Positions 1-36,744 of a stretch of DNA of 64,000 bases are shown piece by piece. The stretch covers positions 1 through 64,000 of the forward strand of contig JBJFYX010000274.1 of the NCBI GenBank assembly GCA_044892525.1, read 5' to 3'. Each line of letters starts with the position of its first letter. Position 1 is the stretch's first letter. Under the pieces are notes generated by a model. It was not told the DNA's origin and ran no database searches. It saw only the letters and a list, made by a program, of their open reading frames with translations. The position numbers and the translations under genes are program-made. The DNA comes from Schmidtea polychroa. Taxonomy: Eukaryota.

Positions 1-1452
1 AGAACACACCCATTACTCAGGGTAGTAAAAAGTCAATGGCCTATATTATTTACGATCACAGACCATTATGGAGATACACCGCTGCACAAACTTTTAAAGG
101 TCGGGAATAATGAGCAAATACTGGAAACGATCGAAGCATTTCGCGACTGTAACATTTCGACGGATCAAGAAAACAACCAAGGTTACACTCCACTAATGAT
201 AGCAGCCAATCGGGATAAAGCTAAAGATATTATTATCGCATTACTTGAAACTGGGTCAAAGATAACCACACAAGATCACAACCAGAAAAATGCACTACAT
301 CATGCAATCGAAGGGAAAAGTACGGAAGCCTTCATAATCTTAGTAGATCTATTATCGTACGAGGATAATAGGGAGATAGGAAACATGTATGACGGGCTAT
401 TAACTGCAATCAAAGAGAAATTAATAACAATTACTGGATTACTAATTGCATGGAGGAACCCGATCAAAAACGATTATATGGTAGATATAAACGAAACATT
501 TACCAAAGGAGAAAACACCTTGATGAGAGAAGCGATGAGAGGACATCACCTATTCGAAATTCCAAATCAACTACTACAACGTGGCATAAAGTTTTCAAAT
601 CACAAAGACGAACAACTAATCAGAAAACGAATTACCAACTTCGAAAAAGCTATATCTCAATTTACCGATAAAGTACAAGTAAAATTTTGGGAAACCGTGA
701 GTGTATTATATATGATGGAAAATATGAATAACATTCGAGAAACTTACCTAAGTATTATTCAAGTTCTAACGGCAGAGGAACGCATTAACAGTTCGAACAA
801 GAAAAAGATAAAAATCAAGAAAATAACAGCAAGGGAGTCTGAGAAACGAGTCAATCAAATAATAAGCGATATAGCAACAACAAGTAAACCAAAGATAATA
901 AACTCCGACCAAGAGATAGTAGTACGTAAGGCTAAAGAAGTATTCTTGGAAGAAATGCAAGATCTATCCGATGAAGCGATACTAGCAAAAATAACAAAAA
1001 CAGTACACACCTACGCAAGAGACCAGACCACAAATCTAGACATAGGAAAAATAAAAACATTTATACCACTAGCATTCACCTTACCAACAAAAGATTCAAG
1101 AACACCATTACAACAAGCCATTTTAGCAGCAAAAGAAAACAGAGCAATAACCATCATAAGAATTCTTAGAGACTTCGGAGAAGAATCTAATGCAAAAAAT
1201 GAACAAGGAGAAACAGCAATGATGTATGCAGCAATAACAAAGATACACCCGAAAACCTTACATATACTACATCAATCAGGTTCGAGACTTGACGAAATAT
1301 CAAACGAAGGAAATTCTACCATGGATTGGGCAACAATACAACCAAACTTGGAAATGATTAGATTCATTTGTAAAAATGCTACAAGAACTGAGGTAGAAAA
1401 TATCTGTAAAACACGTCACAGTTCCAATGGAACACGATACGGAAGAGCTTAG
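1..1452 (+). CDS. Ankyrin-repeat protein, 5'-partial (frame open from base 1); continues via a frameshift near 1410 into the next ORF
   Basis: Repeats GDTPLHKLL, GYTPLMIAA, QKNALHHAI, GENTLMREA, SRTPLQQAI, GETAMMYAA, GNSTMDWAT. No stop in frame 1 from position 1 to 1450. Confidence 0.85.
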   Translation, partial: RTHPLLRVVKSQWPILFTITDHYGDTPLHKLLKVGNNEQILETIEAFRDCNISTDQENNQGYTPLMIAANRDKAKDIIIALLETGSKITTQDHNQKNALHHAIEGKSTEAFIILVDLLSYEDNREIGNMYDGLLTAIKEKLITITGLLIAWRNPIKNDYMVDINETFTKGENTLMREAMRGHHLFEIPNQLLQRGIKFSNHKDEQLIRKRITNFEKAISQFTDKVQVKFWETVSVLYMMENMNNIRETYLSIIQVLTAEERINSSNKKKIKIKKITARESEKRVNQIISDIATTSKPKIINSDQEIVVRKAKEVFLEEMQDLSDEAILAKITKTVHTYARDQTTNLDIGKIKTFIPLAFTLPTKDSRTPLQQAILAAKENRAITIIRILRDFGEESNAKNEQGETAMMYAAITKIHPKTLHILHQSGSRLDEISNEGNSTMDWATIQPNLEMIRFICKNATRTEVENICKTRHSSNGTRYGRA

Positions 1453-1457
1453 AAGCC

Positions 1458-3053
1458 ATGAAGTTATTGCTAACATGGAAAATACCGCAAAGCAATAAAT
1501 ATGCAATAAATATAAATGAGTTCTACGAAAAGGGAGAAAATGCTATGGTTAAAAATATACTAACAAAAGGAGGAACTCCAAAAATCATAATGATCGTATT
1601 AAACAGGGAAGACCTCAAATTCACGCAGAATCTAAACGAACAAAAGCGAATCGGAAAACATCGTCGGATACAATTAAGAGAATTAGTAAAAGAATGGAAT
1701 AGAAAGAGACATGCAGCAACAGGCAGAAAGGAGTTCGAATTCGAAGCAAAATTAGCAAGAAACAGAGTGCTAACGGCATACCGCAGATTGTTGAATGATA
1801 TAAATGTCGAGGACGACATTTTAAACGATAGCGGGGGAGATAAAGACGATAAAGACGACGATAATAATGAAAAAGGTCGAAACGGGAATAAAGAGAAAGA
1901 GAAATCAGAGGAGAATAATCAAGAAAATAACGACGCGAGTATGAAAAAAGAGGAAAATAACCCGGGAAACCGAATGAAGCAAGAAGAAAAGACGAATAGT
2001 GGAAAACAGAGGGTATGTCTACTTTTTACCAACAAAGAAATGGAGACAAATATGATGATAATGATACTCGTATTAACAATGGTGGAAATGATAACAGCCC
2101 AGGGAGGAATGAGAACGATAAAAGAAGCCAAAGAAACGGAAAATAAGGACAACAAAGAGGAAGAACTAAAACAAGAAAAGAAAAAACAAGTACAAGAGCA
2201 GCAATGGGATCTAAAAGAAGAATGGGATTTAAAAGAAAGGTGTATATTAGGAAGATGTATGTCTAGAGCTTATCAGAGACTAGTGTTAAAAAATGAAGAT
2301 GCAGAACCAATAACGGAAGTGGGAATACAAGAAGCGTACCAACATCGAAACGGGAAGAAGATAACAAAAGTCAAATGGAAAGAGGTACACCTGAGTAAAG
2401 GAGGTGAAATAGTGATAACACAGCTTCAACCAAGAAAAGAGCACAAAGTGTGTATTTCAAGGCTAGGACCAGGAGAAAATTGTCTACAATATGTAACGCA
2501 ACAACAACCACCAAAGGAATATACGGTCTGTATCCTGAGAAACGGTCCAGAAAGAGAATGTCGACGATACCCTGGGAAGAGAAGGAGGAAAAGAAAATTC
2601 AATGATGAAAAAGATGAGCAAGGAAAACGCAAGAAAACCGTTGAGAAATATCAGGACAATTATGTGTCAGAGGAAGAGATGAAAAAAATACAAAAGATGG
2701 CAAAGGAAGGTATGAACGAGGAAATAGCAAGAATACGAGGAATGATAAAAGGAAATGGCAAAGACGGTAATCTAAAAAGCACAGAGGCAATATCAACAAT
2801 AACGAACAAGGAAAAAGCGGAAATTATAAGCGTAAAACAGATGATGTGGATCAGCGGCATAATAATAGCAGGGGCATTTTTAATCATAACGGGGGGAACA
2901 ATAAAAATAATCAAAGATAGACAACATCGCGGGGAATTAGAAATGACCCGAATCAGAAATTTTCAGCATCGAGTAAAACGACCAAATAATATCAAGCAGG
3001 AACAGTGGGTGGAGGCCTGGAATGCTCAGCGCCCTCCAAACTCACGTATATAG
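1458..3053 (+). CDS. C-terminal ankyrin repeats, charged linker, then a membrane-protein module (hydrophobic segment 2052-2100, Cys-repeat loop, polybasic site, TM 2841-2900, tail ending SRI)
   Basis: Frame is open from 1410 and reads WNTIRKSLEAMKLLL and INEFYEKGENAM (ankyrin-like). Downstream ATG at 2040 precedes MMIMILVLTMVEMITAQ. Duplicated VCIxRxGPxxxC motif; KRRRKRK; WISGIIIAGAFLIITGG. Confidence 0.75.
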   Translation: MKLLLTWKIPQSNKYAININEFYEKGENAMVKNILTKGGTPKIIMIVLNREDLKFTQNLNEQKRIGKHRRIQLRELVKEWNRKRHAATGRKEFEFEAKLARNRVLTAYRRLLNDINVEDDILNDSGGDKDDKDDDNNEKGRNGNKEKEKSEENNQENNDASMKKEENNPGNRMKQEEKTNSGKQRVCLLFTNKEMETNMMIMILVLTMVEMITAQGGMRTIKEAKETENKDNKEEELKQEKKKQVQEQQWDLKEEWDLKERCILGRCMSRAYQRLVLKNEDAEPITEVGIQEAYQHRNGKKITKVKWKEVHLSKGGEIVITQLQPRKEHKVCISRLGPGENCLQYVTQQQPPKEYTVCILRNGPERECRRYPGKRRRKRKFNDEKDEQGKRKKTVEKYQDNYVSEEEMKKIQKMAKEGMNEEIARIRGMIKGNGKDGNLKSTEAISTITNKEKAEIISVKQMMWISGIIIAGAFLIITGGTIKIIKDRQHRGELEMTRIRNFQHRVKRPNNIKQEQWVEAWNAQRPPNSRI

Positions 3054-3221
3054 AAAGGATTATGACTGTATATAGATTGTAAAAAGTAAGTAGATAATAT
3101 TTATTTATATAACAGTATGATATATTTTTATATAACCGCGGTATCAATATTATATAATGATGGGGATAAATAATATAAAAATAAAATTGGATAAGGGTTG
3201 AAAAGTATATATAAATTAAGA

Positions 3222-3581
3222 ATGGAGCGAATAGGCGAGGAAGTAAATCACAGTACGACAACCGAAGAGATGTGGAAACAACAATGTGCAATGTTAACTC
3301 AAGTAATTTCAAATTTACAAGAACAAGGACTGGCTGTACAAAGAAGCTTAGTCGAAAGTTTAAATAAAGGCTTCGGCTATGTAAGAATAATCGAAGACCA
3401 ACGAAGAAAAATAGAACAAATGCAGCGAGAGATAGACCGAATATCACTATACAGCCAGGTGCAAGAAGAGGAGTTAATGAGAATCGCTGAAGAGATGGAG
3501 CGAGAAGAGATGGAAGACTGGTCAGACTGGCTAACCAGCAGGGAAGAGGGCGGACAAGAGGCCGACTCTTCCAGCCAATAA
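3222..3581 (+). CDS. Small coiled-coil protein with acidic C-terminus, unknown function
   Basis: First ATG at 3222 (the track starts at TTG 3198). Heptad-like helices; codon bias matches neighbouring ORFs. Confidence 0.7.
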   Translation: MERIGEEVNHSTTTEEMWKQQCAMLTQVISNLQEQGLAVQRSLVESLNKGFGYVRIIEDQRRKIEQMQREIDRISLYSQVQEEELMRIAEEMEREEMEDWSDWLTSREEGGQEADSSSQ

Positions 3582-3671
3582 ATATAACCTAAAACAAAAA
3601 ATGTAAATAACTGTAAATAAAAATACGAAACTGTACCAGTAACGAATATATGTATATATATAATTATAGAA

Positions 3672-5060
3672 ATGGATAAGCAACAACGAGAAGAATTCAA
3701 AGAGATCGTCGAACAAGTCAGAAAGTCCACCACAATTCGAATACACAACCACGTAACGTGTGGAATATGCAAGAGCTTATTAAAAGAACCTCACCAAACC
3801 AGATGCGGATGTCGAATGTGCAAAGAATGTGTAGAGGAGATAATAAAGAAGGGACCACAATGGTGCCCAGTATGTAAAGAAACCATGATAACAAGTTTGG
3901 GAGATACAAACGAAGATAAAGCAGCTGTGAAAGATATGTTAAATGCAAATTTAGGATGTAAAAACACCCCGTGCAATTGGCGAGGAGTGATATGGGGAGT
4001 GAAGCAACATATAGAGAAGTGTGAGTATAAAATCAGTCAATGCGAACGTTGCCAGGAAGAGATTAAAGCAAAGGAAGAGGAAGAGCATCAAAGTCGATGC
4101 GTAGAAAGGTTAGAAAAATGTGAATATTGCGGAGAGACCGATACCCGAAGAAAATTAACTAGTCAACATCATAATTTACAAGAGGAAAAAGTATGCGCGG
4201 AATTCAGAGGAGAATGTCCCAATAAATGCGATAAATCTGGAGTAATAAAACTCGCTCAACATCTCAGAGAATGTGAAAGGAAAAAGATAACGTGTGTGCT
4301 AGGAAAATGGGGATGTCAGAAACAATTACACCGAGGAGAATTACCCCAACATCTAGCAGAAAACGTATCAACACACGCGGAAATATGGTCAACGGTATTA
4401 CAAGAAAACGAAAGGAAAACCGAAAACTTAGAAAAAGAAATGATCTCGCTAAAAGCGTTGGTAAAAGAGCTATTGCTAGAAAGAGAAGCATTCGAAGAGG
4501 CAAGAACAAGTACAAAGATACAGACAGATCTAGTGGAAACTAGCAACATTATGGTGAAAGAACTACATCAAAAAGTAAGCGAATTGAACCTCAACGAATT
4601 AATACCAACGGCTCCATACATATGGAAAATAACGGGAGTAAAAGAGAAGATGCAGAGAGCGAGAAATGGGAAGGATACAACATTACTAAGTCCAGCTTTC
4701 TACTCATGGAAAAACGGGTATAAAATGAAAATGAAAGCATACCCCAACGGGGACGGAAGTGCATACGGAACGCATTTCTCAGTATTCTTCTTGATGTGTA
4801 AAGGGCTATACGACGAGTTAATAGAATGGCCATTCAAAGCAAAAATAGACCTCGCGATGATGAACCACCAAAGTATACGTGAACAAAGTTTCCATACAGC
4901 AGGAAACCTCGTATGTTACCAAAGGCCCCTGGAAGAAGAAGGACCAGCAACCGGAGCACCGAATTTCATCCTACAGCGGAAAGTAGAAGACATGACGAGA
5001 AACGACACTATATACATAAAAATAGCGGTGAGGCGAGACGGGAAGAGTAGGACGGAGTAG
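3672..5060 (+). CDS. TRAF: TNF receptor-associated factor (TRAF2/3/5-type): RING, five TRAF Zn fingers, coiled coil, MATH domain; intronless
   Basis: RING CGIC...CGCRMCKEC...CPVC; fingers such as CKNTPCNW...HIEKC and CVLGKWGC...HLAENVSTH; MATH motifs YIWKI, SPAFY...GYKM, NGDGSAYGTHFSVFF, EWPF, NDTIYIKIAV. Confidence 0.96.
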   Translation: MDKQQREEFKEIVEQVRKSTTIRIHNHVTCGICKSLLKEPHQTRCGCRMCKECVEEIIKKGPQWCPVCKETMITSLGDTNEDKAAVKDMLNANLGCKNTPCNWRGVIWGVKQHIEKCEYKISQCERCQEEIKAKEEEEHQSRCVERLEKCEYCGETDTRRKLTSQHHNLQEEKVCAEFRGECPNKCDKSGVIKLAQHLRECERKKITCVLGKWGCQKQLHRGELPQHLAENVSTHAEIWSTVLQENERKTENLEKEMISLKALVKELLLEREAFEEARTSTKIQTDLVETSNIMVKELHQKVSELNLNELIPTAPYIWKITGVKEKMQRARNGKDTTLLSPAFYSWKNGYKMKMKAYPNGDGSAYGTHFSVFFLMCKGLYDELIEWPFKAKIDLAMMNHQSIREQSFHTAGNLVCYQRPLEEEGPATGAPNFILQRKVEDMTRNDTIYIKIAVRRDGKSRTE

Positions 5061-5279
5061 AGAGACGAATAATTTTGTATATACTAATTATAAATATCGA
5101 TGTATATACCCAGTAAAATATTATATAGTAGTGTAGAAAAATTCCCCCAAATCTACTAAAGGTAAACTTAAGCGTAAAACTCCTAAAACAACCCCTATAA
5201 CGAATTGTAACAATAAATAAATAATAAAACAGATATAAGCGTACGACGTTGAGTTAATGATATCGTTATTCAGACAAAG

Positions 5280-6317
5280 ATGACTCAAGATCAAACGGAA
5301 GCCCCAAATAACGAAATAAACATCAGTAAAATACACAGGGAAAGATGGGCCAAAGTGATGGCACAATTATCCAATCAAACACGAAATTACCTCGAAGAAG
5401 CGAGAGAATGGGAAAACCACCAGTTCCAGTGGTTAGTGCAGAATTTACGGGCGGAGGCCGAGGCCTGCAAACGGGCCGCCAAATGGTCAGCACTAGAAAA
5501 TACCAGGCAAGAGGCACATGGGCATTATCTGAAGCAACTGGTACAAGAGTCAAGAAAAAGACTCACTGATGAGAATAAGAAGCGGGAAATAGAAAAACAA
5601 AAGGAGGAAAGGAAGACCTGTCAACTATTAGCAGAAGCCAGAAAATGGAAAACCCAACATCGAGAAATCAAAAAAGAAATGAGAGAATTGCCGCAGAGAT
5701 TGGAATACGAGAGTGAGCAAGGGAAATGGGAAGAAAATCTGGATCAGAGAGAAGATCTAAGAAGGCTCCGAAAAATCGCCGCTAGAAGTCAAACCTGGCA
5801 GACCAAGGCCATGGAATTTGAAAGGCATCTGGCCATGAAACTGTCTATGAAGGAACAGGAGAATACCGCCATGGAAGAGATGATCCTGCAACAGTCAGGT
5901 AGAATCGTTGAACTTGTGAATAAGGTGGCAGACCTCGAAAGAGACAATAACGGCTACAAAGGGGCACTAGAACAAAGAAATATAGTGCTAGCCGGTAAAA
6001 ACAAAAAATTAGAAAATGAGAGGAAGATGTATGATGAGAATATCAAGAACCTAGAAAAGGAGATCAAAAAATGGGAAAACGGCGAAAAAGCGGAGGAGTT
6101 AGAAAAACAGATAGAAGTAAGAGATGATGAAGCCAGGTATCTGACATACCTGTTGGACGAGGAACTCAACGTGTCAAGAGCGCTAAGAGACGAAGTCCAA
6201 GAGCTTAGAGCACAGATTCCCCGGTACTACATCCCATTCGATCCCATCGCACTCCAACTACAAGCGTCGATAGAAAGCGATGAAGGATATGTAGGTCAGG
6301 AAGAGACCTTTGTATAA
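5280..6317 (+). CDS. Long coiled-coil protein ending in ETFV
   Basis: 345 aa open frame, E/K/L/Q-rich heptads, same codon bias as the cassette. Confidence 0.8.
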   Translation: MTQDQTEAPNNEINISKIHRERWAKVMAQLSNQTRNYLEEAREWENHQFQWLVQNLRAEAEACKRAAKWSALENTRQEAHGHYLKQLVQESRKRLTDENKKREIEKQKEERKTCQLLAEARKWKTQHREIKKEMRELPQRLEYESEQGKWEENLDQREDLRRLRKIAARSQTWQTKAMEFERHLAMKLSMKEQENTAMEEMILQQSGRIVELVNKVADLERDNNGYKGALEQRNIVLAGKNKKLENERKMYDENIKNLEKEIKKWENGEKAEELEKQIEVRDDEARYLTYLLDEELNVSRALRDEVQELRAQIPRYYIPFDPIALQLQASIESDEGYVGQEETFV

Positions 6318-6490
6318 AGATAAATAGAAAAGATAAAAAATATAAAAATCGGGACCTATATCCCAACAAAAAAATTAATAGTACGATAAAAGTATTGATG
6401 GGACTGTAACCCTGATTATATAAAATTACCTATAAATGTATAAATATAAGTCGCACTGTAGCGCAAATATTAATTGTACATATTACAGAA

Positions 6491-7180
6491 ATGAAAATAG
6501 AGGAAATATTCGCCACAACTGAGCTAGAAGAGGGAGAAATTGAAGTAGAAGAAGTGGAAAGGAAGAAAACCATCAAGGAGGAATTACAAGAGGAGAGACA
6601 AGAGAACGAAAGATTGGCAGAGAGATGGAGAGATAATCGAAAAATAATTAAAGTATTGAAAAAAGAATATACCTTGTTAAAAGAAGCAAAGAAAGAAGTA
6701 GAGGAAGAAAATGAATGGCTCCTCGAGCAAAGAAAACGCGGAAGAAATTGGAAGAAGATTGCAGAAGAATTATGGCAGGAAAGGGCCAGTAGAAAGGCAG
6801 ACGAAGTCATCAACGATTATTGGAGAACAGAGGCACGAAAACATCAAGAAAGCCTGAAAGAATTACGACTTCAATTACATCAAAAACAAAAGGAGTATGA
6901 GATAATGAGGAAACTGAACAGCAAATATCAAGAAATAGAGGACGAGGAAGACGAGGAAAGAGGAAATGATTTCTTACAAGTACTAAACCATAAAAACCTA
7001 GAAAGAGCAACACAGGAAATAAAGGAGTTAAAAGGAAAAATAAAGTTCCTAGAGCAACAGATAGATGAAAGAGATAAACAACTAGAAGTACTGCCAGAAT
7101 TGAGAAAGCGGGTAATAAAAGCGGAAACGGAAGTGATGAGAGCGTCTGAGAAAGCCCGTAAAAAGAAATCCCGATCATAA
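6491..7180 (+). CDS. Coiled-coil protein with basic C-terminus (KARKKKSRS, NLS-like)
   Basis: 229 aa open frame, highly charged heptad pattern. Confidence 0.8.
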   Translation: MKIEEIFATTELEEGEIEVEEVERKKTIKEELQEERQENERLAERWRDNRKIIKVLKKEYTLLKEAKKEVEEENEWLLEQRKRGRNWKKIAEELWQERASRKADEVINDYWRTEARKHQESLKELRLQLHQKQKEYEIMRKLNSKYQEIEDEEDEERGNDFLQVLNHKNLERATQEIKELKGKIKFLEQQIDERDKQLEVLPELRKRVIKAETEVMRASEKARKKKSRS

Positions 7181-7234
7181 TTAAAAAGGGATAATTGATG
7201 TAAATAAATGTATATAAAATATTCGTATAGTAGT

Positions 7235-7879
7235 ATGTGGTCCGGAGCAACCCTGATAACCTTAATGATGATCACCATAAACGGAATACCCATGTGGCAG
7301 TCAACCCCAACACGTTGGAAGAGTCCCAAGGAGCAACAAGATCCAATAATCAAACTAAACAACGAAAGAAAACTCTATAACAACATCCTGAAACCCTGTG
7401 GGAACAAAGCCGTCTGGCAAAAGATCCAAATGAAACTCAATCTCCAAACCCAAAGAATCGAACAACTCGAAACTCTTCTACAAGAACAAACCACCCAACA
7501 ATCTCTAAAAGAAACCCTTACGAAGAAAGAAACCAAAGAAAGTCAAGTCCTGTTCTATGTTACAATTGGTGAAACCATCCTCATCTGCGCGCTAGTCATC
7601 TGGAAAGCGTATGATAGCTATCGAGCATGGAAAAGAAACAAACCTCAAGTCGAGAAACCCAGAAGGAAGAACCCACGACCAAGAAACAAGCCTACACGAA
7701 CAGTACATTTTCAAGCATCAGACCAATCTAACCAAACGCGAAAAAATCTATCCTCTAACCAGACACCTGCCACAACCCAACTCTCCACGGCAACAACGTC
7801 AACCAGCCATTCAATTCAGAAATCCCAGAGATTCCCGAATAACAATTTACCAAGACAAGAACGACAATCAGAACTTTGA
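7235..7879 (+). CDS. Small type I membrane protein: signal peptide, short coiled-coil ectodomain, TM, basic and S/T-rich cytoplasmic tail
   Basis: MWSGATLITLMMITING signal-like N-terminus (ATG 7235; track start 7208); TM VLFYVTIGETILICALVIW at 7547-7603; basic juxtamembrane stretch. Confidence 0.75.
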   Translation: MWSGATLITLMMITINGIPMWQSTPTRWKSPKEQQDPIIKLNNERKLYNNILKPCGNKAVWQKIQMKLNLQTQRIEQLETLLQEQTTQQSLKETLTKKETKESQVLFYVTIGETILICALVIWKAYDSYRAWKRNKPQVEKPRRKNPRPRNKPTRTVHFQASDQSNQTRKNLSSNQTPATTQLSTATTSTSHSIQKSQRFPNNNLPRQERQSEL

Positions 7880-9852
7880 GATCCTGTGACTACCCATAAC
7901 TTTGTGTATATGAATCCGGTCACCATAAGTGGCCACTGCTTGCTTTTATTTGTCTTTTATCTGTTAATTAAAGTATTAGTCAGTTAATTTAAATTTTTAT
8001 TTTTTTGTGTGAATGTTGAATTGTGAGATCAGATTAGATACCAAAGGAAGTATGATGTGAGTGGATAATATTATGTGAATTGCGGGACGCAATTTTAACG
8101 GGCCCCGGAGTGATTTGTTGGGCTAAGTTTTGAAGTAGAGAAAAACTGGGTTAAATCGGGAAACGAGCCGCGAAAAATATAAACGAAATATAATAAAAAT
8201 AAATCCCCATCAAACCTCAATAATAAATAAGGAAACAATAAAATACCCATAAAAAGAAATAAGAATAAATGATAAATAAATAAAGCCCTTAAGAATTAGA
8301 AATAGGACATAAGAGAAATGAGTTAAAGCACAATAAATAAAGTAAAAATAGAATAAGCAAAAAGGTAAGAGAAAATAAACGAGAAATTAAAGCAATAAAT
8401 AAAAAATAAAAATATCTTTAAGTTTAATTAAAACAAAAATTGCATTATGATAAAGTAGCAGTGAACCCGCAGAAAAAATAGGAGAAAAATAAGAAAAATA
8501 GGAAAAATAAATAAAATAATAATAAGAAATAAGTTAAGTTATTAAAAGCTAATATATTATAATAAAAACATAAAATAATAATAAATATTAAAAATTACAA
8601 CCTAACTAAGTCCTGATTGGATGGAAAATAGTATATAAGAAACGCTAAAAATCAGTAGAGTACCACTTTAATCAAAAACTCTACAGGTTTCAAGATTTTA
8701 TTCACAAACTACTACAGAGGACTAATCCAAAGAAGACTAATTTGAATTGAGGAAGAAACATACAGCGAACTATTTACAGCATTATACAGGAAAACCTTAG
8801 CCGATTTAACCCAGTTATTTAATCTCAAGGTATGGTAGGATATTTTTAGGTTTGATTTTATGATAGATATGATGGAATTTAATAAATATTTATAATTGAT
8901 ATTAAATTTTGTAAATAACAAGGAAAATTTGTTCAATAAATTTATTTAAAAACAGAACCTGCCTTTCTTCATGGAGCCGACGACTGTACCTTCTGATGAT
9001 TTCAAGTATGATGCCAAATGGAGAGAGTAGCCCCGAGGAATATTATGATATGTAGCCAAGAAATGTTGCGCGGATATTGGATCAGGAGCAAGCGATAATA
9101 GTGGATACGATGCCAATACTGTAAGGGAATATTGGGTTGGAAAATGAGAAAGCATCATACTTGGAACTCAGACGATATGGTCGCCGGTAATTTGATTCAT
9201 TTACTTGATTATTATTTGTTCCATTTTTATTATTTATATCTGAAATTTGTTTTTAAATTGCTGAATGCGAAAGAGTCGACTGGTCCCTCATGATCGTCCG
9301 AGAATGGCGGCAGAGATGATTGCCTTCTTGGGTGTGTTATGAGGGGTGTAGAGGCTCAGTAGGTTGGGATAACAGGCTGAAGGATGGAATTTCTTCACCG
9401 AGCTCGCATCGTTCTTAGCAAGTTCCATAGCTTCAATAAGTCACATCGATACTTCTAATAATAGCGGAGGAGATTTAAGTTGAGAGCCGAAGACAGTTCG
9501 GAGTTGAGATTGACAATTTCATCAACGTATTAAGAATCCACATAGTTCGGCGAAATTTCTTCATAACGGTCAACCCGTCAGTCGGAATAGTGAACGAGAA
9601 TGTTGTCGTCAAAGCTTGGAGTATAAATCCAGTAAATTTCGCAGAGTACTGTTTTCCTCGGTATACTAGCAGAATCTGAACCGTCGATATATTAGCGATG
9701 ACACCCGTCGACGAATGCACTTTTAAGTTAAGTGATTAGCTTCGAATCGCTGATAAACATCGTTTTTCCTGAAAAGAATGTAAATAAGTAGGAGAGGTTA
9801 TCAGATTACTCACGGAGAAATGACAGAAATCGCGGACAGATCTATCGATTGG

Positions 9853-10746
9853 TCACTGACTGAATTGAGGAACCACTGTAGGAGTTATCAGTGACTTGAG
9901 AAATGAATTGCCGGCAGATGATAACTGATCGAATTGAATGACCAACGAAGCCAGATAACACCGATAATAAATTTCCACGAGGAATAATCTAATTGACGCG
10001 TGGGTAGACCTTGTCTTGTACTGGCTGCGTAATGATCGAGGCAGATTAAAAATTCTAGCTTAGTTAATGCTCATCGGATTACTATGTACAATTCCAGGGT
10101 GATACTTGTGAACACTTAGTGATAATTCCAATATATTATGTAACTGTACACACCTACACACTCCATCGTGAATCGTCTCCCAGTAGGATAGCAGAGTACC
10201 CTTGGCATTGGAATTTGGCCGTGATGTCAAAATTACATAGTAACCTGCTCGTAATTCCCTGAGTTGGTAGGCTGGTGTGTATGAACAACAGAGCAGATCG
10301 TCTCCACTGCGATTTAATACGACGTCGAATTTTCTCCACTATCACATAGAAATAGACACACATGAAAGCTCAAGGTGGAGATACTCCAACAATGCATACC
10401 GACTCAGTTGATAAATATAAGAATAATGCACACACCTACAGGTAGGCGTCACTAGGGCGACAGAAGTAGCGCGATTTTTAAAAGAATTTTTGGAATTTAA
10501 ATTATAATTAGCTAATAGTATATATTTAAAGTCCTTTATGTCAATTCGTAATAACAATGCGCCATAAGGAGAGATAAATTTTTCATGCGATTTAGCAATA
10601 CGAAGTAGGTGCAAATTAATAAACTGAAATCCCCAACGATCGGATGCTATTCTTTTCTAATGATTACGAACGTAAATATGTTTGACTATAGCAGCCGACT
10701 AAAATGCAATGGGTATGTGTTATCCGACCCGAGGTAAATTTCTCAT
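9853..10746 (-). pseudogene. Decayed antisense ORF (~298 codons, 6 in-frame stops, no frameshift) inside the putative LTR
   Basis: One frame runs from ATG 10746 through the track ORF 10342-10614 to 9853. Internal repeat CRCVxxxxIxxLS occurs twice, 94 codons apart. Confidence 0.4.
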
Positions 10747-11119
10747 CGAATAAGTTAAAATCGAGGATTCCCCGTTTTTCTTCTCTCCATCACCTTGAAT
10801 CAATAAATCGATCGAAATGTTGTTTCCTAAATGAGTGAATGAGGAGTGTTGAATTGTGTGAAAACAAGTTGTTTTATTGTATGCCGTGGCGTGGTATGAT
10901 GAGTGAAATCTTTGAGTTTAGTGTCTCGATAGAATTTGGAACTAGATATATTTTAACCGTTAAAACGGATTACTAGAGAAAACTTAGCTGAGACATTAAA
11001 AACATCAAATTATGAATCAAAACACTTCGTGAGAATTTCAGAATTATAACCAATAAATTCTTGTACTGGATACCTTAATAAGTATCGCAATTCGGTTTGA
11101 ACTATGATTAACTTTCTAG

Positions 11120-11881
11120 ATGACAACACCATCCAACAACGCCCAAGAACTTCGTCCGTGTTTCTCTTGCGCTGACAAGAACTCGGACATCTCTCAACTT
11201 CATTTATATATAGGGGCCCTCAAGAAGAGGATAGATCTTTATGAAGGAACGTGGTTCTCCCCGCCACAGATGAAGGAGGAAAAGGCTAAGATCCTCAGGT
11301 TAGAACATTGTAGGGACAGCCTACTAGAAGAAAGCCGATGCCAAAAGCTCACAATAAAAGCACAATCAGAAGCCCTCCATAAGGTCTACATGGAGGCAGA
11401 AATAGCAAAGCGGGTACGCGAATATCCCGTGTTGGATGGATCGAATGTCTTTCCTCTCCATCACCAGTCATCTACAACTCCCACCTCAGCTTGTCGAGGG
11501 CACGGTTCCCATCTACCGCCCATCCCAGCCCCAGTGCTGTCAGGATACTTACCTATGAAAGGGGGTCCATCTGACCCAATTCTGGCCCCGGTCCTAGTGG
11601 CACCCACAGTATCTACTACTGTTGGAGGAAATCCGCCATCACGCAAACGCAAACACCCAACTAGGGCCGAGAAGACTAAGAAACGAAGAAATGCAATGAA
11701 GGCGCTCGAGGCTTCTTTGTTTGCAGCGCAGACGACAATAGCAGAGATATCCACCACTCATACGATTCCCTCGAAAGAAGTTTTCCATATCATTCCAGCT
11801 AACGGCATCAAGTTTATCTCGGATTGTAGATTGCCGGTAGACATCGACGAGTTAATTGCCGACGGAGAAAACTTTAACTAA
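11120..11881 (+). CDS. Unknown protein: CxxC, short coiled coil, Pro-rich middle, bipartite NLS-like RKRK...KKRR
   Basis: 253 aa intact ORF immediately preceded by a splice-acceptor-like TTAACTTTCTAG. Confidence 0.65.
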   Translation: MTTPSNNAQELRPCFSCADKNSDISQLHLYIGALKKRIDLYEGTWFSPPQMKEEKAKILRLEHCRDSLLEESRCQKLTIKAQSEALHKVYMEAEIAKRVREYPVLDGSNVFPLHHQSSTTPTSACRGHGSHLPPIPAPVLSGYLPMKGGPSDPILAPVLVAPTVSTTVGGNPPSRKRKHPTRAEKTKKRRNAMKALEASLFAAQTTIAEISTTHTIPSKEVFHIIPANGIKFISDCRLPVDIDELIADGENFN

Positions 11882-12406
11882 AACGGTTTGCGAGTGATCT
11901 TGAATGTATTTCGAGTCGTGAATGGACTGATAAACTTCGTTAATAATGTGCATCCTAACTGTTCGTATGATATTGTATTAATAAGTGTGATGATGTTTGT
12001 TTTATTTTCATTTCGGTATTAATATATTTTGTCTATTTGGTTCTGTTTTATAAAGTTTTTCATATGTTTGGTTTTGAGAATAAATGATTTAGTGTTGTGG
12101 AAGGAAAGCTAGTAGGCTAACGGTCGTTCCCTTGGACCAGGATCGAACCAAGACTGAAGCATGAATAAGGGTAAGTCCTTCTAAGGCACCAGTGAACCTG
12201 AACCGCGAGCGGGCTATCAGTAGTCCTAAGATAGGGGCTCACCTGTTAGTCAGCTCCGACCCGTATGGGCACTACCAACGTGGAACATCACCACGGGCTC
12301 ATGCGTGGGAATATGTAAATGATCATTTGGCGTATGTATGGGAGGTGTCTGAGCTAACCAATGCGGTCGGTATGATAATGGTTGTGTAAGTTTTCTTCTC
12401 CCTCAC

Positions 12407-12547
12407 ATGCCAACACTAATGCAGAAGATCCATGATCGCCGATATCTGATACAAGACCAAAGTTGGAAAATGCTTCAAAGAAATGTTGAAAAGATGAAGG
12501 AATTTCTTAAAGAATGGGGATGTGAGATGTTTTCAGCTGAGAATTAA
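12407..12547 (+). CDS. Orphan terminal coding fragment MPTLMQKIHDRRYLIQDQSWKMLQRNVEKMKEFLKEWGCEMFSAEN
   Basis: 46 open codons, protein-like, followed by AATAAA. A GTAAGT...CTAAT...CAG intron-like stretch occupies 12386-12424. Origin (host or element) is unresolved. Confidence 0.3.
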   Translation: MPTLMQKIHDRRYLIQDQSWKMLQRNVEKMKEFLKEWGCEMFSAEN

Positions 12548-13082
12548 ATATTTCAATGATTTATTAAGATATTTTAAATGATAAATAAAGGACTATAAAA
12601 ATATTTTTCAAAATAATTTTTAAATTGAATTTTTTAAATTGAAAAATTAAATAAGCTTTTTGAAAGAAGTTTTATTAGTAAATAATTTTTAAATAAATAT
12701 ATTTTAAATATCGAAATTTTAGTAAACGGTTTTCAAAATATTTTATTCAACGCTGAAAATTTGTTTGAAAATTATACAATATTTCATTAAATAAATACTT
12801 GGAATTATGACGTTAACCTTTTAACCGGATTTAAAAAATAATTTAGATGTTTTAGCAGCTTCTAATAAAAATTATTAAATGTTTGTCTGTTTTAAAATAT
12901 TTTATTTTTGAGATAAAGACAAATACAAATAACAATTACAAAATATTCATAAAATCAGATTAAAATCAGCACATTAAAAATTGCAATCACTATTATAAGC
13001 AATTCTTTGTCCAAACTTGTGAATTTAAAAGTGTAAGGTCAATTATTTTAAGAAAAATTTCATGAAAAAAATTTTCCTAAAA

Positions 13083-15802
13083 TCAGTACATCATAATCCC
13101 ATCTTCCTTGCAATGATTATCATCCGGTCGCTTTTGAATTATAATTGAACAGTCGATGGAAGTTATAGTGTAAAATGATAAATTGAAAATAAATCCGATG
13201 ATTCCACCAATAATTAAGTAAAACGCATTGTCCAGATGAATGTTTTTATTAATGTACCAACCAAAATTTTTTTCATCAAATGACAATAAAACTAAAACGG
13301 CTTTCTGACTTAAAAAATCATAACCAACTAACGCAGCCACAATTAAATCGATAACTGTAAAAATAATAATATTAATATTTAAATTAAAAATAAGCCTAAA
13401 ATATTTTATGTCAATAAATATAAATTAGAGCAGGGCAGTTCAAATCATATTGATTTCCACAAAGAGAAAAAGTAAATTGAAACCATTATTAAAGATTTGA
13501 ATATAATTTCATTTGGTAGTTATAAGATTAAATAATAATACGTGATATATATACCTCTTGTGTGTGTACAACATATAAATATTGGGACAAATAATAAACG
13601 ATAATATAATCTTAGGACACAGACAATCAAGGTTAATCAATTAAAAATGCTGGCATTTATATCTATTACTCATATTGACTTACATAACATAACGTAAGAC
13701 AGGCCTGGGTAAACCACGTCCCACCAATTATTTCTGTGAAGGCCTCGAGGTTTAATTGTATTTATGAAAAAAAGTTTACTTTTTCTACATTTAAACGCCT
13801 TTTTAAAAATAAAAATTAAATATACATATAATACATTAAATAAATTGTCAACTTGTTAATTATTTTATCATCTCTGACTTCGTTCAAGCTGAGACAGAAT
13901 TTGAAATTGTTCCCGAACAAACCGAACCAATGTCAGAGAGAAAGATGAAAATTTAGGATAAAATTTACAATTGTCCTTATTACAATTTAACTTGGCCAAA
14001 TTGTTTCAGTGAGTATGGAACTTAAAAGAAAATATTATTCTTTTTTAAGAAATGAAAAATATTGTGAAATTTCTTGAATTAACTGATATTAACTGTCTTT
14101 TTGATTTTGGCATTTATTCTGAACATTATGACACACTTAAATACATTCAACACTGTGTTACAAGGAAAGAATTATATCCACACAATATGAGTAAATGTTT
14201 GAATGGATTTCAATTAAAACATACTATTTATTCAACTATTATTGATAACAAAAAATAGAAACAAGCTTGGCAATAGTACGCGATTTATTTCCAAAAGATT
14301 TATAAAATACCTAATGGGCTACAACTTGAAATTATCGACCTGCAGTGTGATAGATTTAAGGGTATTGTACCATCGAGAAGGAATCTGCATATTTCATGAA
14401 ACTATTAATTCGGACAAATTCGAACAAACTTTTCAATTATCAATATCAATAAAAACTATTTGTGATCAATCATCACTGAATTTGTGAATTTTCAAATTAT
14501 TTTATTTGATCTGAATAAATTATTGTAAAAGATCGTAGAAATAAATTTACTATAAAAACTTCATAATAAATGAAAATAAAAAGGTCAAGCTGAAAAAAAT
14601 CCATTACTATTTCAAATAATTAAAAGCAATAAAATAAGCGTTAATAAAATGATTATGAATAATTTATTAAGAAAAACAAAAAGACAATACCGAAATATGT
14701 CTGAATGCATTTCATTTGAAATCTAATAAAAAGTAATTGTTTTTATTTTATTATTTACTTTGAAATGATTGCATTAGCAGTTTATTTGATAAAAGTTTAC
14801 TTTTAATGTTTTGTTTAGCTCATTAAATTAATGTTTCAATAGTAGAATAGTTTAAATCTGACTGAACATGTTATTTATTCAGTAACAAACACGTCAGAAT
14901 ATTGAAACTCTACTCACAATTCAAAATCACACGAATATCTCCATCAGATATTAGATCCACAATCAAACTTGATCTCTTTAATTTCTTCGTTGTCGAATAG
15001 CAAATTTTTTTTCAAATCTTGAAAAATATTATTTTGTTTATTAATCGATTTGAATTTTTGTTTAAAAATTATTTGGCATGGACTTTTTTAAAAATGGCTA
15101 CCTGATTCCACTTCTCCCGTATTGATATTGATATTTCCACAATGAATTAATTTTTAATTAATATTGTTATATTCAAACAATTGTATTAAATTTTTAATAT
15201 TGCAAGAAGTTGATTTATATTTTTTAATTTTCAATATAAACAAATAAATAAAAGCAAAAAATAAAATAATAAAAACAATTTCATGCATTTAATTTCTAAA
15301 ATCTTACTTCCAAATATGTTCCACAAATAAATTAGTATTGGCTTACTGAGAAAGTGTTGGGGAGATCTATTGATCACAATAAAGAAAAAAAGCATGTTTA
15401 AAAAAGCCGAAAATATTCCCAAGCATAAAAATATTTGAACAACAATCCACTCAATAAATGTGTAAAAATTGTCTTTTACAGAAGTAATTACTGAAACATT
15501 TTATAATTATAATTTTAAAAATAATTAAACATACAGTCGATGTATTTTATTTTCACTATATACCCTCCTCCATAATCAAGGGACTCTGTTCCACTGAATA
15601 ATCCAATTGATATCGTTCCAGTTAGTAAATTTGAAGATATATTTTGACCGGTGTCATAAATATTTTGAGTAAAATTTCTTTCGATCTCATATCGACACCA
15701 AAGTGGTAATCCAATAGACAATGAAATTATAGAAAGAATACATAAATTCATTATTATTTCAAAAATTAAAAATGCTTTCCGATATCGTTTATTTTTAATC
15801 AT
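13083..15802 (-). CDS. CLRN: Clarin-family four-TM protein; exons 15802-15535, 15490-15308, 13354-13083 (240 aa)
   Basis: GT-AG introns with matching phases give an open 723-nt CDS. SIGLPLW, GTISIGLFSG...YGGG, PILIYLWN and C-terminal DGIMMY match clarin hallmarks. Confidence 0.85.
13950..14490 (+). mobile_element. Degenerate Buster/Charlie-type hAT transposase fragment inside clarin intron 2
   Basis: LQLEIIDLQCD and a frameshifted EQTFSIININK, typical of GTF2IRD2/Charlie-like C-termini; many stops. Confidence 0.6.
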
Positions 15803-25523: not shown

Positions 25524-25911
25524 GGTAATACTTAAGTTTTGGGGGGGGGGCTGAATTCAAAAATGAGTTAATTAATATATACTCTGAGTTTATCCGACAA
25601 AATATTCTGTCCCCCTATATGTATTGCTCACAAGGGTACTAGATTTTTGTAAATTTCTAACATTTTTATGAATTTTTATCATTTTTGTGAATTTTTGGTA
25701 AAATTATCAATGAATGCCTTAAACAACAAATTTGCCTAAATAATCATTCAAATAAAAGCATTAAATACCTTTACGACATGTTGAATGTGAGTAGTACCCT
25801 TGTGAGCAATACCCATAGGGGGACAGAATATTTTGTCGGATAAACTCAGAGTATATATTAATTGACTCATTTTTGAATTCAGCCCCCCCCCCAAAAAACT
25901 TAAGTATTACC
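25524..25911. mobile_element. Mutator-like (MULE) foldback MITE
   Basis: ~118-bp near-perfect TIRs starting GGTAATACTTAAG; 9-bp direct repeat AAAAAAATC on both flanks (25515-25523, 25912-25920). Confidence 0.88.
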
Positions 25912-26219
25912 AAAAAAATCTGATCCTATTAATAAAAATAACTACAAATATAATTTTTTCCATTAATTTTTTTTAAATATGTTAATAAATGAATATAACT
26001 AGTCTACAGCAACTATATATATTGAAGTTACAAGCTAAATATTATTTAAATAAAAGTGACTCTGATCCCTACAACAGTATTGTTTTTAGTAGGCACTGCA
26101 AAATCAGTGTCTCTTGAACATTTTAAGAACAACATTTTGTTGTTATATTTTTAATAATAATAAATAATTATTTTTGTAACCATTTTTCAATACATAAATT
26201 TTTATGTGCCACTTCAATA

Positions 26220-28167
26220 CACCTAATTCCGAAATTTAATAACTTCTATAATCTAAAAAAAATCAATAAATATATATTATAGGAACACACAAACTTACCT
26301 GTGTGTAGAAATTTATTGTTCCGAAATTTAGTAACTTTATTATACACCTAACTGCGAAAGTTAACATTGTCTATAATATACGTTGGTGTGCACACCACCT
26401 GAGGTGAGTCACCAATTATATGACAATGTTAACTTAATTTCATTTTTACAATTTTTCAAAAATCGTTTTAAGGTAAGTTTTGGAATTGAAGTAATTTTTA
26501 GGACTTGAATTTTGATTTTATATAATTATGAGATCATTATTCAAGTTCTTAAATATTACTGTTAGTCAGCATTTATAATATTGATAATATATAACATTGA
26601 TAATTAAATTTCAGGTGTTTTTTTAGGAATTTTATGGTATTTTATTTGGATTTATTTGGATTTATTTCGTAAAAATGTAAGTTAGATATTTTTATAATTA
26701 TAAATAAGTAAAGTAATCACCAAACATTTATTTTTTAAAGACATTTAGTAAAGAATGGATAAAATATTTTTTAAGTTTTTGTAATCTTCTTTCGAATTTT
26801 GACTATTTCTGTAATTCTATGAAAATATTAATTTGTTAAAATTATTTATTAAAATTTACGATTTGCGATTTTTTTCCTGCAAATTCAAAGATGTCGAAGG
26901 ATCTTCTTCAATATCTGTAAATCTAAAGAAATTTTATATTCTAAATTATTTTATAATTAAATCTTACGATGTATTTACTTCATTTTCCCTAAAGCTCAAG
27001 GTAGAGCAGTCAGAATCTGATTCAAAAGTTTTTTTGCACATAACTTTTTAAATAATTTGAAAATATTGATATGTTAATTATATGTTAATCAATGTATATT
27101 TCGCATGAAAAACACTTTACTTAATTTTGTATGTATTTTTCATTATGCTGTGCTTGTATGCTTAATCATTTTCTCTCACTTTTTAGATTCCTATAATAAA
27201 TATGTTAAATTTCGCAGCATTAAATTTCTACACACAGGTAAGTTTGTGTGTTCCTATAATATATATTTATTGATTTTTTTTAAGATTATAGATAATGTTA
27301 TATTTCCCAGTTAGGTGTAGGTTTTGTGAAGGTGAGAGAAAAATAACTGAACACACCAACACAAAACACATAATGAAAAATGCATGCAAAATTCTTATAT
27401 AGGTTTTTGTTCCGAAATAAATAACTGTTAACATATTGTTAACATATTAATTATATATATAATTATATATAATTATTTTAAAATTATTAAAAAATGCAAG
27501 AAAATACTTTAAATTTAGATTCCGACAGCTCTACCTTGAGCTTTAGGGAAAAAGAAGAAAATACAATGTAAGTTTTATTCATTAAATTACAAAATATTAA
27601 AATATTTTATAGTATGTGTGAAGGCAGCATTTCAAATATTGAAGGTCCTTCGAGATCTTTTGATTTACAGAAAGAAAAAAGCCATCGAAAATGAGCTGCT
27701 GAAAGATTATAAAAATTTAAAAAACTATTTCATTCATGTACGCCGATTTTTTCCTAAATGTCTTATAAAAATAAATGTGTTTGTGATTACTTTATTTATT
27801 TATAAATATAAAAATATCTAACTTACATTTTAGCGAAATAATTCCATATTAATGCATAAAATATCATAAATTTCCTAATAAACACCTGAAATTTAATTAT
27901 TAATATATTTATAAATGATAAATTATAAATGATGACTAACAGTAATATTTAAGAACTTGAATAATGATCTCATAATTATATAAAATCAAAATTCAATTCT
28001 TAAAATATACTTGAAATTAAAAAAATTACCTGAAAACCATTTTTGTTGCTAATAAATTATTGAATAAATGAAATTGAGTAACTTCATTTTCACGTAAATG
28101 GTGACTCACTCAACTGGTGTGCACACCAACGTGAATTATAGAGGTTACTCAATTTCGGAATTGGGTG
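26220..28167. mobile_element. Tc1/mariner-like non-autonomous foldback element(s) with long imperfect inverted arms
   Basis: TA-flanked termini CACCTAA(T/C)T at 26220 and 26345, reverse termini ending 27317 and 28167; arm ~26370-27030 mirrors ~27520-28130. Confidence 0.75.
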
Positions 28168-30086: not shown

Positions 30087-30819
30087 TCAACGCCCAAAAC
30101 CCTGGAAAGCCACATTATCCATAACTATTGTATAATTTTCCATGTTCAACTCTTTCATTTTTCGAAATAGCTCTGTCAAGAATTCAATAAAAGTATCTCC
30201 ATTATAAGCTCGATTTTGTGTCTTATGAAAAACGATTCCGCGCTTAGAAATCCCGGTACAAACCGAATAGTTTCTTGATCTTATTGCTCTTACCACTTTC
30301 CTGGCTGGAGTCCCCACCAAACTTCTTCCATAATTCAGTCTAAGTGAACAACTCACTCCCATTTCATCGACAAAAATCGTTTTATCTTCATCAAGTATAG
30401 GATATGCGTTCCCATTATTATATCTCCGAGCTATATTATCAGGACTGTTTCTAGCCTCAGGGATCAAGCTTACCCGTTTTAATGAATAATTTAGCCTCTG
30501 TAAAGACTTCTCTACCGTTGGTAACAATACAACTCTTCCCTTTTCGGTGTAAATACGACTTTTAAGAGACTTTAAAGTAATAGAAACATCATTTTCGATT
30601 TCATCAACTATGAATGTTTCAACATTCGAGTCAATTTTCATTGCTTTTGGTTTTGTTTAATAGATTCGGTTCTACCAAATCGTGTGTACGTCCGTAAAAC
30701 ACTTCTAATTGTCTCATAGTTCAACTCCAGGGCCGTCGCAATTTCTTGAGGCGATTTTCCAGCCTCATGTTTATTTATCTTCGTGTTTCATCTGACATTT
30801 GCCTTTTCCTGTTGTTCAT
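30087..30819 (-). mobile_element. IS630/Tc1-family DDE transposase, disrupted and 3'-truncated
   Basis: N-terminal HTH (GKSPQEIATALELNYETIRSVL), IFVDEMG, IVMDNVAF; third catalytic residue region missing; frameshift and stop near the 5' end. Confidence 0.85.

Positions 30820-36646: not shown

Positions 36647-36744
<98 letters not shown>

Follow-up and report, generated by a model that had tools for sequence, protein, structure and literature searches.

Selected accessory genes, including a complete TRAF gene, in a giant Burro-type Ty3/Gypsy element of Schmidtea polychroa

The stretch of DNA analysed here (hereafter the window) comprises 64,000 nucleotides of the flatworm Schmidtea polychroa (assembly GCA_044892525.1, contig JBJFYX010000274.1, positions 1 to 64,000 of the forward strand), and its first part, up to position 12415, represents the last (3') third of a Burro-type Ty3/Gypsy element that is young, multi-copy and equipped with env. 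This third contains the end of a polyprotein gene, a row of accessory open reading frames (ORFs) with a complete TRAF gene among them, and a long terminal repeat (LTR). The window stands at the start of its contig, the first 30.8 kb of which duplicate a chromosome region at 99.5-100% identity, and the whole element could be read in this chromosome copy. The 5' LTR of that copy is situated 26.5 kb upstream of its 3' counterpart, the two are 99.5% identical, and the element measures 31.1 kb with an internal part of ~22 kb, in line with the total of more than 30 kb and internal part of at most 25 kb that characterise Burro. An LTR pair is likewise present in 19/20 further copies, and is at least 99.2% identical in 18 of these 19. 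The chromosome copy is bordered on both sides by a 4-bp target-site duplication (CTAA). Such 4-bp duplications occur in all four full elements inspected, and seven other LTR loci, flanked on either side by 4-5-bp duplications, are solo LTRs. As in the Metaviridae, the LTRs are direct repeats ending in TG...CA, and the target site is duplicated. To judge from the flanking frames, the copy was inserted into the reverse transcriptase (RT) frame of an older, decayed Gypsy element: the protease and RT frames of the left flank in the chromosome copy stop at the target site, and the RT frame, read by eye, resumes past the duplicated CTAA in the right flank (12416..12550, + strand).

A primer-binding site occurs 7 nt past the 5' LTR and is complementary to the 3' end of the host genome's tRNA-Pro(TGG). 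This is the primer tRNA of both Burro families distinguished below; it has 2,164 pattern matches genome-wide and forms a tandem array with a 475-bp unit at ~130.90-130.95 Mb and beyond on chromosome C1 (L211). The 20 nt before the 3' LTR (window 8096-8115) are kept among copies and are GC-rich, with no purine run, and the internal region bears TGATT at both its start and its end. Pfam analysis of the upstream frames gave the internal order of a 159-aa RING ORF, gag with CCHC knuckles, an uncharacterised region, a Monjiviricetes-type fusion protein, protease (PR), RT, RNase H (RH), integrase and ankyrin repeats. The fusion domain (E 5e-72) is in frame before PR, and thus constitutes an in-frame env between gag and pol. 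The pol is of the Ty3/Gypsy type, with Ty3/Gypsy pol proteins as its best relatives at ~40% identity. No pPolB, packaging ATPase or Polinton capsid was found in the Pfam scans of the polyprotein frames, and the termini are direct LTRs. The AT skew is +0.39 in the cassette versus -0.01 in the flank, and +0.38 in the upstream gag-env stretch; its equal value in gag-env and cassette indicates that the skew marks the sense strand of the whole element. The original prediction, made from the window, had pointed to the extreme A-rich skew and assigned the ORFs to the stretch that separates pol from the 3' LTR in a giant Burro-like member of the Metaviridae, with gag-pol and a second LTR copy to be sought upstream. 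Both are present upstream in the chromosome counterpart, together with env, the primer-binding site and the target duplication, and the skew holds; the reclassification as a Maverick/Polinton-like element that had been considered is contradicted by the upstream gag-env-pol and the direct LTRs.

Between the start of the window and the LTR, seven co-oriented, intronless frames occur on the + strand, at 1-1452, 1458-3053, 3222-3581, 3672-5060, 5280-6317, 6491-7180 and 7208-7879. These frames, and the tiny spacers between them (5, 168, 90, 219, 173 and 27 nt), are as predicted, but the count of seven genes is not, as comparison among copies identifies ORF1 (1..1452) and ORF2 (1458..3053) as the frameshifted end of the polyprotein and not as separate genes, leaving five separate accessory ORFs. 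In 20/20 other copies the ORF1/ORF2 junction is a single open frame, the ankyrin region is in frame with integrase in other copies, and the ORF2 domain lies at the end of 4,593-4,817-codon frames in 41 of the 150 scored matches, compared with a single polyprotein of ~4,900-5,100 aa in Burro/GYPSM1. The window copy has a frame shift near position 1410 and its chromosome counterpart three further breaks upstream, four altogether in the polyprotein frame, so that the description of the cassette as apparently intact does not hold for this copy. ORF1 represents the ankyrin part of the gag-env-pol polyprotein that follows integrase (Ank_2, E 2e-21), with the repeats in two clusters (aa ~15-130 and ~345-465) and a ratio of nonsynonymous to synonymous substitution (dN/dS) of 0.11; this and all further dN/dS values are pairwise means by the Nei-Gojobori method, with pairs with dS <0.03 or saturated excluded.

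ORF2 (dN/dS 0.14) is the C-terminal tail of the polyprotein, and was characterised by hydropathy and through a homologue in a second family. It consists of a basic and an acidic linker, a signal-like hydrophobic stretch, a predicted all-beta ectodomain, a transmembrane helix and a short tail, with the hydrophobic segments at aa 199-217 and 467-485, and this layout suggests that the region is likely released as a type I membrane protein. A single-sequence model of the ectodomain is all-beta (pLDDT 50) and found no fold match at E<=0.001, and aa 180-531 had no relative among 1.84 billion representative sequences. An FN3/Ig-like fold for the modelled ectodomain is a guess, prompted by a motif that we take to be of this type. 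On chromosome C1 at ~152.8-153.5 Mb, the ORF2 domain recurs in a cluster of approximately ten copies with 165-codon frames, which probably represent a locally amplified decayed copy.

The fourth frame (3672..5060, +) encodes a stand-alone, full-length TRAF of 462 aa, in which RING, zinc fingers, coiled coil and MATH could be distinguished by comparison against Pfam and PDB. The PDB matches include TRAF2, TRAF3, TRAF5 and TRAF6 and span both the RING-zinc finger and MATH parts. The layout is that of the TRAF2/3/5-type E3 ligases, and ligase activity is accordingly a prediction from domain content. The original prediction of an ankyrin and a TRAF protein is thus upheld by Pfam, with Ank_2 in the first frame and RING and MATH in the fourth. 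The TRAF has at least 92 full-length genomic matches at 92-100% identity, 82 of them stop-free, a lower bound given that 92 were scored among 1,869 candidates. The cassette, for which a copy count had been called for, is thus dispersed rather than single-copy. All of the 20 copies sampled from the 92 matches adjoin pol, and the dN/dS of the TRAF is 0.11. The element TRAF shares a CGC RING variant and its whole layout with intronless non-Burro TRAFs of the same genome, and this host-like architecture, together with the RING variant, suggests that it was likely captured from a flatworm host gene. A protein search with the TRAF retrieved two relatives among 3,346 candidates.

Directly upstream of the TRAF, in both families, lies ORF3 (3222..3581, +), which encodes an acidic helical protein of 119 aa (dN/dS 0.13). 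Downstream of it, ORF5 (5280..6317, +; 345 aa; dN/dS 0.05) and ORF6 (6491..7180, +; 229 aa; dN/dS 0.14) encode charged, coiled-coil-like proteins, the latter with a basic C-terminus and, on alignment, a mosaic of two allele types. ORF7 (7208..7879, +) encodes a membrane protein of 223 aa, with an N-terminal hydrophobic leader, a short ectodomain, a transmembrane segment (aa 114-132) with a conserved Glu, and a basic disordered tail; with ORF2, it accounts for the two membrane proteins that had been predicted. The reading frame is open in 20/20 (ORF3), 18/20 (TRAF), 20/20 (ORF5, one shortened), 19/20 (ORF6) and 18/20 (ORF7) of the sampled copies. No significant family match was obtained for ORF2, 3, 5, 6 or 7 or for the LTR ORF described below, PHROGs returned no match for six ORFs, and ORF7 had no usable atlas match.

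ORF7 occurs as two allele classes that are ~24% identical, with class A in eleven and class B in nine of the 20 copies, and with a dN/dS of 0.36 within each class. The class label switches four times on the RT tree as well as on the TRAF tree (shuffled mean 7), and the copy nearest to the window copy in TRAF (98%) bears the opposite ORF7 class. This discordance between ORF7 class and TRAF kinship indicates that the 3' module is exchanged by recombination. An RxVxF motif, presumably of the PP1-docking type, is present in 12/12 aligned class A sequences and in none of class B. A TRAF2-type PxQE motif and a PDZ-type end were considered for ORF7 and dropped, being found in the window copy only. 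A FAST fusogen was likewise rejected, as ORF7 lacks the N-myristoylation motif and the ~30-aa ectodomain.

Values of dN/dS are 0.03 for RT, 0.03 for env, 0.14 for the upstream RING ORF and 0.09 for the LTR ORF (107 unsaturated of 188 pairs), and the comparison between copies that had been proposed gave 0.05-0.36 across the accessory ORFs. The accessory ORFs and the LTR ORF are thus under purifying selection, subject to the reservation that the pairwise values are not mutually independent.

A second family was recognised through its MATH domain. Of the best 150 among 1,484 candidates in a MATH_2 search, 123 fall within long frames of the polyprotein type, most of them with 4,791 codons, and the other 27 occupy short frames. 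One long-frame copy was inspected; its MATH domain falls within the 4,791-codon polyprotein, and its PR-RT-RH is 74% identical to that of the window family. It carries a cassette in the same order, with an ORF3 homologue (33%), a full-length TRAF (31-33%), ORF5 (30%), ORF6 (25%) and a signal-plus-transmembrane ORF, and adds an IAP with BIR and RING. The common order indicates that the cassette predates the split of the two families. In the window family, no MATH was detected in the gag-env region and no BIR in any scanned frame, both being present in the second family. Of the BCL2-like, ubiquitin-like and dUTPase-like motifs that HHpred had revealed in Burro/GYPSM1, ubiquitin-fold matches were sub-threshold only (E 0.04-0.5), and no BCL2 was found in either family by phmmer against PDB, a search weaker than the published HHpred. 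That the cassette is passively captured host DNA, a domesticated host locus or part of a Maverick/Polinton is very improbable: intronless non-Burro TRAFs of the same architecture do exist in the genome and would speak for it, but such an origin does not sit with at least 92 dispersed copies, pol beside every sampled one, the above dN/dS range, a gene order kept across two families and a Gypsy pol upstream.

The host genome has MATH genes of its own. A tree of 37 MATH rows unites the Burro domains only weakly (93/77, with long branches), next to the intronless non-Burro TRAFs, and sets 21 host rows apart as a separate clade. A cluster of at least fifteen related host MATH genes, distinct from the Burro TRAFs, occurs on chromosome C2 at ~114.7-121.5 Mb (L101-L127). 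None of the eight short-frame MATH loci checked lies inside a recognisable Burro element. The idea that Burro alone gave rise to the expansion of TRAFs in planarians was rejected on the basis of the 27 short-frame matches, the 21-row host clade and these eight loci. Judged from these sequences, Burro contributes many copies of few TRAF genes and the host has its own expansion.

The 3' LTR spans 4300 bp (8116-12415, +), from TGTTGG to CCAACA, and every inspected copy has the same ends, which corrects the placement at 8056-12407 in the original prediction. A promoter-like block, a short hairpin leader and a donor-like site (8612..8695, +) were located by their conservation among LTRs. An inverted CCAAT box and a TATA box (~8612-8640) are kept in all eleven LTRs displayed, and a donor-like CAG/GTAA follows 74-77 nt past the promoter box in 18/20 3' LTRs, 15/16 5' LTRs (the sixteen whose promoter fell in the retrieved stretch) and 12/15 close relatives. 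The leader hairpin is not significant by itself (z -1.4). Downstream lie a two-way AATAAA block near 8936 and RNA-structure-like blocks (8975..9355, +). The latter comprise a long-range stem, ~8975-9017 with 9148-9186, which reaches -34 to -50 kcal/mol in the 13 of 21 copies that matched the pattern, and a hairpin at ~9283-9352, with two-sided changes in 7/23 predicted pairs among ten distinct copies, these being related sequences compared with no shuffle control. The LTR had no Rfam match.

The LTR also contains an ORF of 253 aa (11120..11881, +), which is stop-free in 20/20 diverged LTRs and belongs to no Pfam family. Its product has N-terminal helices, a Pro-rich linker and a basic Arg/Lys-rich helix, and was modelled as long helices and disorder. 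By analogy, it is possible that this is a regulatory protein with a role like that of Tat, Rev or Tas, a likeness that is our own assumption. A bZIP was rejected by eye on account of a spacing mismatch. Homologues with 35-44% identity are found at L135:4754-5308 (-), L131:5477-5953 and L140:2176-2916 (-), and one of them, in opposite orientation, lies within or borders the LTR of the second family; their occurrence elsewhere points to more Burro-like families. A block at ~10455-10486, in which a CRE-like element is followed by TTTAAA, may be a second or bidirectional promoter within the LTR. On the minus strand, a 45-nt intron-like stretch (9812-9768), with a donor-like GTGAGT, TTTAC and an acceptor-like CAG, is kept across LTR subfamilies that are barely alignable otherwise; it has a GC-type donor in one subfamily and no conserved reading frame. 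Possibly, such motifs belong to a spliced antisense non-coding RNA ending at the AATAAA block near 8936. An antisense protein-coding gene was rejected, its frames being unconserved and the conserved blocks better explained as RNA stems.

The sequences preceding the start codons suggest how the downstream ORFs may be expressed. A T-rich YAG occurs 0-7 nt before the first ATG of 5/7 accessory ORFs in the window family and 4/7 in the second family, rising to 6/7 and 5/7, respectively, if a nearby second ATG is allowed, against a background of 39 among the 1,230 ATGs, genuine starts among them, of the element stretches surveyed. Conservation lends independent support: TAG and CAG interchange among copies before ORF5, ORF6, ORF7 and the RING ORF, and the YAG persists before the LTR ORF where the adjacent LTR DNA fails to align. 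Promoter, donor and acceptor anatomy is thus likely to reflect splicing of the accessory genes to a common leader. It appears fairly probable that transcription would start ~30 nt past the TATA box in the 5' LTR, that the unspliced RNA would yield a gag-env-pol-ankyrin-membrane polyprotein of ~4,800 aa, and that in the spliced RNAs the leader would be joined to the YAG before each downstream ATG (LTR ORF, RING ORF, TRAF and ORF5-7).

The cassette could instead be an operon resolved by spliced-leader trans-splicing, with the YAGs as trans-splice acceptors. The position of the acceptor-like sites, immediately ahead of the ATGs, and the short, AT-rich nature of the spacers would suit an operon, and both trans-splicing and operons have been published for flatworms, as far as the literature available extends. 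This is nevertheless unlikely, since a donor-like site at a fixed distance behind the LTR promoter, as found in 18/20 3' LTRs, would not be needed, and no common loose end at an ORF start occurs among those listed. Somewhat less likely again is an arrangement as in large DNA viruses, in which a small internal promoter and a poly(A) signal of its own serve every accessory ORF and the AGs are incidental. TATA-like runs do precede ORF3, TRAF and ORF6, but the enrichment of YAG (9/14 versus 39/1,230) with TAG/CAG interchange and spacers as short as 27 nt speak against it. Leader splicing is thus preferred, with several points to be set against it. The acceptor rule was defined after inspecting the sequences, and the donor-like site is degenerate in the window copy. 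ORF3 has no T-rich YAG in either family, and the second promoter-like block upstream of the LTR ORF (~10455-10486) is present in 8/10 subfamily representatives; both would favour internal promoters, which may serve some ORFs. A pattern search found no comparable promoter or donor in the LTR of the second family. No run recorded as RNA was found to contain the stretch. Among the splice joints listed, none stems from the three presumed-RNA runs, all being from one unlabelled deep run; contigs of these three runs and of an unlabelled one span much of the stretch, and cannot demonstrate transcription.

The interpretation favoured here, with moderate confidence, is that the element maintains five selected accessory genes including a complete TRAF, which are likely leader-spliced and would probably influence ubiquitin and cell-survival signalling of the host, helping to keep the host cell alive and promoting the element's spread. 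The combination of the TRAF, the sister family's IAP and the BCL2-like motif already in print suggests survival signalling as the most likely target of the accessory proteins; host TRAFs are required for cell survival, according to the available part of PMC7586133. The odds are about even that the TRAF, acting jointly with the RING ORF upstream (and with the IAP in the case of the sister family), would enter survival signalling of the TNF-receptor type as a RING ubiquitin ligase or as a dominant decoy. More doubtfully, the two swappable forms of ORF7 might have arisen from an arms race at the cell surface, for example if variants of the element interfere with one another or evade a host factor.

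An alternative is that the accessory proteins serve the element's own particle cycle, in assembly, budding, RNA export or trafficking, with the TRAF as a ligase or scaffold for these processes rather than a player in host immune or death signalling. Three of the five ORFs encode featureless charged helical proteins, which would suit such a role, and further observations detract from an action on host signalling. No conserved TRAF-binding motif was found in the tail of either membrane protein (ORF2 and ORF7). The receptor-binding loop, serine-rich NSSSF in human TRAF3, reads NLVCY in the element TRAF, so that its partners may differ. As to the putative NF-kB/TNF role raised in the original prediction, the ankyrins resemble ankyrin proteins of a generic kind, and the 60 listed of 87 PDB matches include no IkB-type chain. 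A particle-cycle role is less likely nonetheless, as TRAF, IAP (BIR and RING) and BCL2-like cargo (PMC6431247) all fall in one death-signalling pathway and the TRAF retains the whole host architecture.

Action on host survival signalling is therefore retained as the preferred role, and a broader proposal can be put forward tentatively. Burro elements may be complex, env-bearing endogenous viruses of planarians on a Gypsy core that converged on the complex-retrovirus plan, with one LTR leader spliced onto at least seven accessory genes. Among these would be a captured, functional full-length TRAF E3 ligase (joined by an IAP in the sister family), a regulator that is encoded in the LTR and targets structured RNA, and a two-form surface protein. 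Were this true, hundreds of PIWI-controlled TRAF copies would constitute a latent input into the death and survival signalling of a regenerating animal. The published idea of meddling in host processes rested on domain lists, and selection and a cassette shared by two families demonstrate that these genes are maintained by the element itself. An exact and cheap test on RNA is offered by the conservation of promoter, donor and acceptor motifs. Many TRAF/MATH matches in such genomes are element-borne, and host TRAF counts and RNAi experiments thus need sorting by origin.

The remainder of the window contains, as read by eye, decayed-transposase-like frames (one Tc1-like and three hAT-like) and a retroelement fragment (30087-30656, 39366-46811, 54016-54480 and 63100-63546), as well as probable host exons at 15515-15802 (-) and 55770-57087 (+), with small membrane protein and RRM-like domains. 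A palindrome with 185-nt perfect arms around a TA run lies at 36511-36880, and nested inverted repeats typical of miniature inverted-repeat transposable element-like sequences at 25537-28023.

Splicing is the means by which HIV and HTLV express their accessory genes. The window element resembles complex retroviruses and foamy-like fish endogenous retroviruses, the latter named in PMC6431247, in having accessory ORFs between pol/env and the 3' LTR and an ORF within the LTR, and in that the promoter is directly followed by a donor-like site and most ORFs are preceded by an acceptor-like one. It differs in its Ty3/Gypsy pol, its Monjiviricetes-type env before pol and its unrelated accessory genes, and splicing is here proposed from motifs. 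The planarian nidovirus PSCNV is likewise an RNA-based parasite with a giant polyprotein, and carries an ankyrin domain proposed to modulate host immunity (PMC6211748, in the part available). According to the same part, the PSCNV ankyrin domain is near host NF-kB-like proteins, whereas those of the element are generic, and the replication machineries are unrelated. The sORF2/FAST-like proteins of MDG1-group retrotransposons, as far as described in the accessible text of 10.1101/2025.03.14.642691, are Metaviridae-encoded, small single-pass membrane proteins with a basic region after the helix, as is ORF7; the latter differs in lacking MGxxxS/T and in having an N-terminal hydrophobic leader and a ~3x longer ectodomain, in an element with its own env. 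Host planarian TRAFs, in the sections of PMC6109357 and PMC7586133 available, share the RING-zinc finger-coiled coil-MATH layout, and their expansion is described there with no link to Burro. The element TRAF is 28-32% identical to them, mobile, present in at least 92 copies and on a long branch.

The closest known system is Burro1/GYPSM1 of Schmidtea mediterranea. The original prediction regarded the gene set as undescribed, but the MATH_TRAF_C, ankyrin, BIR, BCL2-like, Smc-like and env motifs of Burro/GYPSM1 were already reported. Section 7 of PMC6431247 describes an element of more than 30 kb with a 4,873-aa polyprotein and with env placed in frame between gag and pol, and lists motifs of the AIR1, Smc, MATH_TRAF_C, BIR, ankyrin and BCL2-like types; the same paper proposes that Burro-type elements are proviruses interfering with host apoptosis and ubiquitination. 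The available part of PMC8532177 reports transcription of Burro1 in S. mediterranea and its repression by PIWI. No paper dealing with a retrotransposon-borne TRAF that is stand-alone and full-length, with selection acting on the cassette or the LTR ORF, or with Burro splicing turned up in the literature searched, nor did any on the cassette order of the second family with its IAP, the two ORF7 classes or the promoter, donor and acceptor motifs, with the proviso that Grohme 2018, its extended data and Fig. 2A of PMC6431247 may depict downstream ORFs; the text of PMC6431247, that figure apart, is silent on selection, splicing and an LTR ORF. The window family and Burro1/GYPSM1 have in common a length of more than 30 kb, multi-kb LTRs, a ~4,800-aa polyprotein with gag, in-frame env, PR-RT-RH-integrase and ankyrin, MATH/TRAF cargo and accessory ORFs. 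PMC6431247 places MATH_TRAF_C solely within the polyprotein or, for D. tigrina, in an ORF upstream, whereas the window family has no MATH in gag-env and no detected BIR, and bears its TRAF as a separate RING-zinc finger-coiled coil-MATH ORF downstream of pol. The second family, with MATH in its 4,791-codon frame, is closer to Burro1, and the window family is its sister (PR-RT-RH 74%).

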